Virus record (IMG/VR): IMGVR_UViG_2627853701_000009
Source of the DNA: a virus
Taxonomy: Duplodnaviria > Heunggongvirae > Uroviricota > Caudoviricetes
DNA length: 64,000 bases
Strand: one strand, 5' to 3'
This document shows positions 16,871-17,930 of the stretch, one piece after another. The position numbers and the translations under genes are program-made. Below the pieces are notes generated by a model that was not told the origin of the DNA, ran no database searches, and was given only the letters and a program-made list of their open reading frames with translations. Numbering within the stretch: the stretch's first letter is position 1; each line of letters begins with the position of its first letter.

Positions 16871-16942
16871 TTACTTCATCCCGCCAATATTTTCCCACGT
16901 CCCGTCAGCACGCAGGATTTGCAGCGGTCTTACCACACACTG
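16871..16942 (-). pseudogene. 3' remnant of the tail-fibre-adjacent small ORF (encodes ...PLQILRADGTWENIGGMK), 5' part deleted
   Basis: Near-identical to 869-940 and 20943-21014, then abruptly replaced by integrase-derived sequence. Confidence 0.7.
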
Positions 16943-17930
16943 ACCCGAGGACGAAAAAAGAGTTCGGGCTGGGAAGAGACAGAAGAGTAGCAATTTCAGA
17001 AGCATTCACACCAACATTGAGCTTTTCAGCGAAAGTGGGCACGAATCATTGCTGGACAGGGTTAAAGGCACTGACTCAATCACTCTTCATACGTGGCTTG
17101 ATCGATATGAAACAATCCTCAGCTAGAGGGGGAGCAAGCCGAAAACATTACTCGACTACGCCAGCAAAATCAGGGCAATTCGAAGAAAATTGCCGGACAA
17201 ACCGCTCACTGACATATCAACGAAAGAGGTGGCAGCAATGCTAAACACCTACGTCGCAGAAGGTAAAGCGGTTTCCGCAAGAGTAATCAGGTCAACCCTT
17301 GTTGACGTTTTTCGAGGGGCAATAGCCGAGGGGCATGTGGCAACGAATCCAGTAACAACAACCCGTGCAGCAAAGTCAGAAGTAAGGCGCTCAAGGCTGA
17401 CAGCTAATGAGTATGTCGCTATTTACCATGCTGCTGAGCACCTCCCCATCTGGCTGAGGCTGTCAATGGATTTAGCTGTCGTTACAGGGCAGAGAGTGGG
17501 CGATTTGTGCAGAATGAAGTGGTCAGACATAAACGATGGTCATCTTCACATTGGACAGAGTAAAACAGGAGCCAAAATTGCCATTCCGCTGGCTCTAACC
17601 ATTGACGCACTCGACATCTCACTGGTTGATACACTACAGAAATGCAGGGAGGCCAGCAGCAGTGAAACAATAATCGCATCAACCTATCACGAACCACTTT
17701 CTCCAGCCACAGTATCACGGTATTTAACAAAGGCGCGAAATGCATCCGGGATCTCGTTTGATGGAGACCCACCGACATTTCATGAACTACGTAGTCTGTC
17801 CGCGAGGCTATATCGGAACCAGATTGGCTACAAGTTTGCACAACGTCTTCTTGGACATAAATCTGATTCAATGGCGGCGCATTATAGGGACAGTCGCGGG
17901 CGGGAGTGGGACAAAATTGAAATCGGATAA
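16943..17930 (+). pseudogene. int: Lambda-family tyrosine integrase pseudogene (5' truncated, frameshift and in-frame TAG)
   Basis: Three-frame translation matches lambda Int (KEFGLGRDRR..., then WLDRYE..., then intact catalytic region 17190-17930 with HELRSL and HKSDSMAAHYRD); stop at ILS*RG and a frame change. Confidence 0.8.

Follow-up and report, generated by a model that had tools for sequence, protein, structure and literature searches.

Lambdoid genomes are mosaics, shaped by illegitimate recombination at gene boundaries or within genes. Their novel joints lack meaningful homology, their parents are collinear, and the product retains a full gene set. In phage HK022 (X51962; lambda Int family), the 3' end of int is followed by the P' arm, the core (CAACTTA-TTCACCT-AAAGGAT), the P arm and sib, and in both HK022 and mEp235 attP and the tail-fibre genes lie on the 3' side of int. 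In E. coli, the lambda-like ompW prophage (Sakai Sp9 type) carries an exchangeable effector locus with nleA, nleH, nleF, espM and nleG (Nakamura et al. 2021, PMC8112680). This locus is rich in IS remnants and is common to O157, O26, O121 and EPEC. In its main text, the same paper reports that these loci contain attB copies captured from the host chromosome; we found no mention there of an internal integrase and attP relic. A literature search on exchangeable effector loci, integrase and attP returned only unrelated serine-integrase papers.

We analysed a 64,000-nt stretch of DNA (the window), which is a prophage region of the E. coli O157:H7 type. Its effector locus is the one described for the ompW prophage, with nleA, nleH, nleF and nleG at the tail-fibre end, and its gene content and gene names matched in O157:H7 TR01, O26:H11 and O121. 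From 20943 upward, the minus strand carries the lambdoid late region: the tail-fibre C-terminus gene and, upstream of it, the tail-fibre, lom and J genes of the resident prophage, followed by the tape measure and head genes. The effector end lies below 20943 and also contains IS remnants. The genes that frame the locus are as follows.

15219 to 15788, minus strand: nleF effector gene of the outer effector cassette (PF16809, E=2.7e-8; PGAP nleF in homologous loci)
15854 to 16774, minus strand: nleH1-2 effector kinase gene (PF22303, E=1.6e-10; PGAP, with a start corresponding to 16765)
18591 to 19916, plus strand: nleA effector gene (PGAP nleA in homologous loci)
20256 to 20786, minus strand: nleG-family gene (PF06416, E=1.3e-45; PGAP 'DUF1076, frameshifted' in related genomes)
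20943 to 21212, minus strand: intact tail-fibre C-terminus gene, within the ORF 20943-21344 (PF06820, E=1.3e-35; PGAP 270-nt CDS at the homologous position)
62870 to 64000, plus strand: intact integrase gene of the resident prophage (the sole stop in its translation is terminal; PF09003 and PF00589)

The nleG-family effector at 20256-20786 is probably inactive, because PGAP annotated a frameshifted DUF1076 pseudogene in the relatives; in the window, this ORF has a TTG start. An IS256-family remnant occupies approximately 14538-15172, and its O121 homologue contains a small ORF annotated as 'EAST1 family heat-stable enterotoxin' (astA-like; 2791-2856 of the compared piece). The tail-gene regions at 802-13491 and 20876-33023 are collinear, 90-98% identical, in direct orientation and 19.5 kb apart. 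They form a large substrate for homologous recombination, which would delete the effector block between them.

An integrase pseudogene fused to a tail-fibre remnant

Between nleH1-2 and nleA, a pseudogene of an HK022/lambda-type integrase (int') is fused to the 3' remnant of a tail-fibre C-terminus gene. The earlier note had described this fusion at about 16942, with a frameshift and a TAG in the integrase; alignments, a direct repeat and the PGAP annotation confirmed it. The features around the fusion are listed below.

16804 to 16942, no strand assigned: first copy of a 139-nt direct repeat, comprising the 3' end of the tail-fibre C-terminus gene and a downstream hairpin
16826 to 16852, minus strand: terminator-like hairpin 3' of the tail-fibre C-terminus gene (CCGGAG-N-CTCCGG between runs of A and T)
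16871 to 16942, minus strand: 3' remnant of a PF06820 tail-fibre C-terminus gene (23 codons and the stop)
16943 to 17930, plus strand: int', a tyrosine integrase pseudogene (DNA and protein alignments to the HK022 and O111 int genes; Pfam; PGAP)
20876 to 21014, no strand assigned: second copy of the direct repeat, 96% identical to the first at a spacing of 4072 nt

The int' sequence aligned to codons 28-356 of HK022 int with no gap except a 1-nt deletion at 17003/17004, a match well outside anything that chance would produce. Codons 1-27, including the start codon, are absent, and a TAG at 17124-17126 takes the place of GAG (Glu) in HK022. PGAP flagged the gene as 'frameshifted; internal stop; missing N-terminus' in O157:H7, O26:H11 and O121, and the frameshift and internal stop were flagged in every homologous locus that we fetched. 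When repaired, the translation (329 aa) was 86% identical to HK022 Int and 87% identical to the intact integrase of an O111 prophage described below; the DNA was 85% identical to HK022 int. The integrase of the resident prophage showed 39% identity to int' by BLASTP and is thus of a different type.

The catalytic domain of int' was complete (PF00589, E=3.7e-38). All residues of the R-K-H-R-H-Y set were present, in the contexts GQRVGD, SKTG, FHELRS and LLGHKS that are also found in HK022 Int, and the tyrosine lies in AAHYRD versus AARYRD in HK022. The N-terminal arm-binding domain was incomplete. Its loss had also been claimed, correctly as regards codons 1-27; the claim was overstated for the remainder, because the sequence still codes for the latter half of this domain (PF09003 profile positions 33-69 of 74, E=1.2e-8).

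Among 5.8 billion proteins searched, there was no intact integrase more than 88% identical to int', and the sole 99% match was a 230-aa fragment called from the int' pseudogene itself. We calculated dN/dS to date the inactivation; the value for int' versus its intact relatives was 0.15, and that for two intact relatives with each other was 0.09, which shows only that most of the divergence of int' came before its inactivation.

On the other side of the fusion, the minus strand of 16871-16942 encodes QCVVRPLQILRADGTWENIGGMK followed by a stop codon, the same 23 residues that end the ORF 20943-21344. That ORF covers the full PF06820 domain (profile positions 1-64 of 64), whereas the remnant retains the last 23 codons only; PGAP named it 'phage tail fiber C-terminal domain-containing protein, missing N-terminus'. 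The nleH1-2 gene sits directly downstream of the remnant and its hairpin. The hairpin folded at -24.9 kcal/mol (z=-4.1; minus strand, 16815-16875), and a consensus promoter and terminator scan called neither this hairpin nor the sib hairpin described below. An Rfam scan of 14000-21500 gave no match at E<=0.1.

Aligned by eye, the two repeat copies parted company exactly past 16942, and 16942/16943 was the start of every integrase match in the phage and E. coli collections. The join lies within codon 28 of int and within the tail-fibre gene, 23 codons before its end. The two partners have at most 1 nt in common there, the G at 16942 being assignable to either, and no att-like sequence was found at the join. 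Because it lies inside both coding sequences with so little shared sequence, the junction is, as judged from these alignments, a scar of illegitimate (non-homologous) recombination at the 5' end of int, and no att crossover. It differs from the usual mosaic joints in that it lies inside two coding sequences and kills both, and it leaves a 139-nt duplication and a complete spare attP.

In the tail-fibre remnant, compared at the base level, 16852-16934 showed six differences (one indel and five substitutions) from the allele in five other copies of the junction. Over the last 100 nt (approximately 20915-21014), the window remnant differed once from the second repeat copy, and it was 100% identical to intact tail-fibre C-terminus genes elsewhere. 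These data suggest that prophage copies underwent gene conversion with each other, or that the consensus is in error. The local history is not fully clean, because of the six differences and because the best full-length junction match among the 420 genomes reported below had at most 97% identity.

An unrecombined attP with specificity for yfaT

The homology to HK022 continued past the int' stop codon, through the attP and sib annotated in X51962, in the same order and polarity. The following elements were assigned.

17931 to 18000, plus strand: P' arm (74.6% identity to the HK022 P' arm; arm-type matches at 17938-17947 and 17948-17957)
18001 to 18021, plus strand: attP core, CAACTTC (C')-CATGTCA (overlap)-GAAGGAG (C) (67% identity to HK022)
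18022 to 18157, plus strand: P arm (74.5% identity to the HK022 P arm; homology to the P arm at attR of the O111 prophage; P1-like arm site at 18145-18154)
18154 to 18213, plus strand: sib/tI hairpin (18158-18212 in the HK022 alignment; 92.7% identity to the annotated HK022 sib)

The P' arm, a core with two inverted core-type sites and the P arm are contiguous and lie 3' of int'. Because phage arms are present on both sides of the core, the element is an unrecombined attP, neither an attL nor an attR. The core sequence occurs once within the window. Just past the P arm, the sib/tI element is a long hairpin with a U-run and homology to sib, and it folded at -29.6 kcal/mol (z=-6.0); Rfam contains no sib family. 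This strong hairpin lies approximately 380 nt upstream of nleA. The join across attP (17931-18213) is intact. Through it, int' connects with sib, then nleA and nleG, and finally the complete tail-fibre C-terminus gene at 20943, toward which the window keeps the HK022 and mEp235 geometry. In contrast to HK022, int' is truncated, frameshifted and interrupted by a stop codon, and no xis lies upstream of it. The int'-attP-sib module itself is non-functional.

The half-sites CAACTT and AAGGA are common to the HK022 and window cores. The 7-bp overlaps differ (TTCACCT in HK022 versus CATGTCA in the window), so the target of the window attP is not the HK022 attB. The target was identified as yfaT in E. 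coli O111:H8 strain 7-32 9A (NZ_CP077585.1, 1780.7-1796.3 kb), in which a degraded 15.6-kb lambdoid prophage splits this DUF1175 gene, located between yfaA and an alpha-2-macroglobulin gene. The prophage has xis and an intact int (356 aa) at one end and nleG-nleA at the other. Its attL reads ...ACAACTTCCATGTCA|TAAGTTG... and its attR ...GTGTCCTTCCATGTCA|GAAGGAG.... The 11-nt segment CTTCCATGTCA, at 18004-18014 within the window core, is common to both, and joining the phage-derived halves of attL and attR yields exactly the window core. An attB rebuilt from the two bacterial sides was uninterrupted in yfaT in 5200 of 5426 complete E. coli genomes, O157:H7 included, and the window core showed the expected identity with this attB and with attL and attR of the relative.

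The likeness extends into the cargo. The O111:H8/O111:H- nleA prophage at yfaT has the same core, a similar P arm and sib, the nleA upstream region and the nleA-nleG cargo, with nleA adjoining sib and the P arm at attR. From 18004 to 18695, spanning the core, P arm, sib, nleA upstream region and the beginning of nleA, the window aligned without a break to the attR side of O111:H8 at approximately 94% identity overall. In the O111 prophage, unlike in the window, the module has been used: the prophage lies between attL and attR, with both int and xis intact. It is no direct parent, because its int is only approximately 86% identical to int' at the DNA level. As judged by these homologies, the stretch of int', attP, sib, nleA and nleG is one end, in circle form, of a phage that targeted yfaT and carried nleA; nleA belonged to the cargo of this phage, the former owner of int' and attP.

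A separate comparison concerned the O111 prophage and HK022. Their Int proteins were near-identical (dN 0.012; 2919-3989 versus 1180-2253 of the compared pieces), while their att overlaps (CATGTCA and TTCACCT) were wholly unlike. This looks like a switch of target via the overlap alone, with the core-binding half-sites retained.

Distribution and origin of the fusion

The earlier note had called for a search for the same fusion point in other EHEC genomes. A 200-nt probe centred on the 16942 junction was found at full length in 420 of the 5426 complete E. coli genomes, among them O157:H7, O55:H7, O26:H11, O111:H8/H11, O121, FORC_042 and one pig isolate. This count refers to the junction; common lesions were confirmed in the four copies for which a base-level alignment was made (O157:H7, O26:H11, O121 and FDAARGOS_946), and there junction, frameshift and TAG were identical. 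An intact int, named as the observation that would speak against the fusion, was therefore not seen: all four had the same truncation, frameshift and TAG as the window. The identity of junction and lesions in the aligned copies, together with the occurrence of the junction in 420 genomes across serotypes, points to a single origin of the fusion, which would then have spread.

Decay has continued in two strains. The FDAARGOS_946 copy, 97.5% identical, has the three lesions and an extra 14-nt tandem duplication in int' at the equivalent of 17312. In strain 140, a secondary deletion extends from nleF to 61 nt into int', and nleH and most of nleF are gone (4889-5927 of the compared piece). A diverged int pseudogene-attP-nleA block with another truncation point of int was present among IS elements on the katP-bearing virulence plasmid p14EC047c (NZ_CP024158.1; 4353-7018 of the compared piece), with 81.5% identity over the attP-to-nleA query. 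The block appears to travel as a unit.

Another joint was noticed at 14148 (context 13300-14560), where an ISEc8 transposase gene that breaks off approximately 105 nt short of its stop codon is joined at its 3' end to a phage tail gene with an overlap of approximately 6 nt. Its two sides are 37.8 kb apart in O157:H7 TR01, and the complete RefSeq genomes of E. coli all lack the junction. It reflects either a deletion peculiar to this strain or a quirk of the assembly.

The origin that we consider probable is that 16943-18213 is the inactivated module (int', attP and sib) of a second lambdoid phage with an integrase of the HK022/lambda type and yfaT as its target, brought in by one unequal non-homologous crossover of two collinear lambdoid genomes that stacked two effector cassettes. 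Genome 1 would have had the order tails, tail-fibre C-terminus gene, nleG, nleA, sib, attP(yfaT) and int; genome 2 would have had the tail-fibre C-terminus gene, nleH, nleF, further genes, an attP of the resident type and int, and we infer that it supplied the integration module used by the prophage today. The crossover would have cut int at codon 28 and joined it illegitimately to the last 23 tail-fibre C-terminus codons of genome 2. The part of the second phage would have been kept in phage-circle order (int', attP, sib, nleA, nleG, tail-fibre C-terminus gene and tail fibres), and the product would be a complete phage that has its two effector cassettes one after the other, 139 nt in duplicate and a redundant int, which would have decayed afterwards or have been already dead at the crossover. 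The simplest route would take one unequal crossover, with two collinear genomes of phages or prophages as partners; a hybrid tandem followed by one deletion would give the same product. The data fit both routes alike and give no order to the three lesions.

The 139-nt direct repeat brackets the block from int' to nleG. With a 139-nt duplication and a complete copy of the tail-fibre C-terminus gene upstream, the locus fits an unequal crossover and not a simple insertion. Two parents are favoured by the different type of the resident int and by the truncated ompW that adjoins the effector end in FDAARGOS_946, a remnant that matches the ompW prophage effector locus of PMC8112680. Our searches found no parental phage and no ompW-type prophage with the order tail-fibre C-terminus gene, nleH, nleF and without the nleA block. 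When E2348/69 was checked for a simpler ancestral locus, the only record match was an engineered effector-deleted derivative (EPEC1), which was uninformative.

Domestication would offer a different account of why the relic persists: the 246-codon ORF at 17190-17930, which covers part of the core-binding domain and the full catalytic domain, might be expressed and act in trans, or attP and sib might be kept for the regulation or recombination of nleA. Every residue of the catalytic motif is encoded in this ORF, the sequence is near-invariant across serotypes, and the tI hairpin upstream of nleA is strong. Recent spread explains the near-invariance equally well, however, and the further decay in two strains (the 14-nt duplication and the deletion into int') speaks against maintenance. 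The ORF starts with TTG and had no promoter-like site upstream in the consensus scan, from which we drew no inference about promoters because its hits were at or below the shuffle expectation. With the arm-binding domain broken, recombination of attP with attB would not be expected. We regard domestication as improbable.

Similarly improbable is that an nleA phage of the yfaT type used its own Int to enter an attB-like site within the resident effector locus and then decayed. Phage integration into attB copies inside such loci is documented (PMC8112680), but it would leave an attL and an attR, whereas here P', core and P are contiguous, as in attP. With a single yfaT core in the 64-kb window, there is no second half-site; neither a host-derived attB nor flanking attL and attR halves were present, and the other end of the block is the homologous 139-nt repeat instead of an att site. 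The relic is a phage attP, in contrast to the attB copies of the published loci.

The earlier note had read 16942 as the attP join of a circularised or tandem phage, at which site-specific recombination made the remnant and int neighbours. The adjacency on the phage circle that it invoked is real, since attP is flanked by tail-fibre-region genes and int in HK022 and mEp235 and the locus retains the phage-circle order; it is not found at 16942. There the 5'-truncated end of int was joined, at codon 28 and 23 codons before the end of the tail-fibre gene with at most 1 nt shared, and attP lies 3' of int, where it is intact with both arms at 17931-18157 and forms the real join (17931-18213). The alignments contradict this reading of 16942, which we consider extremely unlikely.

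Finally, an error in the sequencing or assembly of a single genome might be invoked from the six base differences at 16852-16934 and the 14148 junction, which allow a local peculiarity of assembly or strain, but as a source of the frameshift, stop or fusion it is refuted by the junction in 420 complete genomes that many laboratories produced on many platforms, the identical int' lesions in four other copies aligned at the base level and the PGAP frameshift and internal-stop flags.

Meaning for exchangeable effector loci

The window carries a spare attP(yfaT) beside nleA. There is a small chance that this site may remain a competent substrate in trans for an HK022-type Int that uses the same core. 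If so, it could recombine with the unoccupied yfaT attB of O157:H7 or with the attP of an incoming or co-resident phage, giving megabase-scale inversions or deletions, or a new phage docked beside nleA. This would be an attP-based counterpart to the gathering of effectors through an attB within a prophage.

The fusion is ordinary phage mosaicism and no new kind of element. The pseudogenes are already known, being flagged in the RefSeq/PGAP annotation, and the literature already covers the effector locus and the part it plays in interactions between prophages (PMC8112680). Our recognition of the intact attP(yfaT) and sib, and the reading of the scar as a crossover that stacked two cassettes, is a modest addition. 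The scar would record how nleA, nleH1-2 and nleF came together, as the cargo ends of two phages joined in one prophage; after that, the prophage or the locus would have spread to several lineages of EHEC and EPEC. To what is already known of exchangeable effector loci and of how prophages interact, this contributes one small detail of mechanism.
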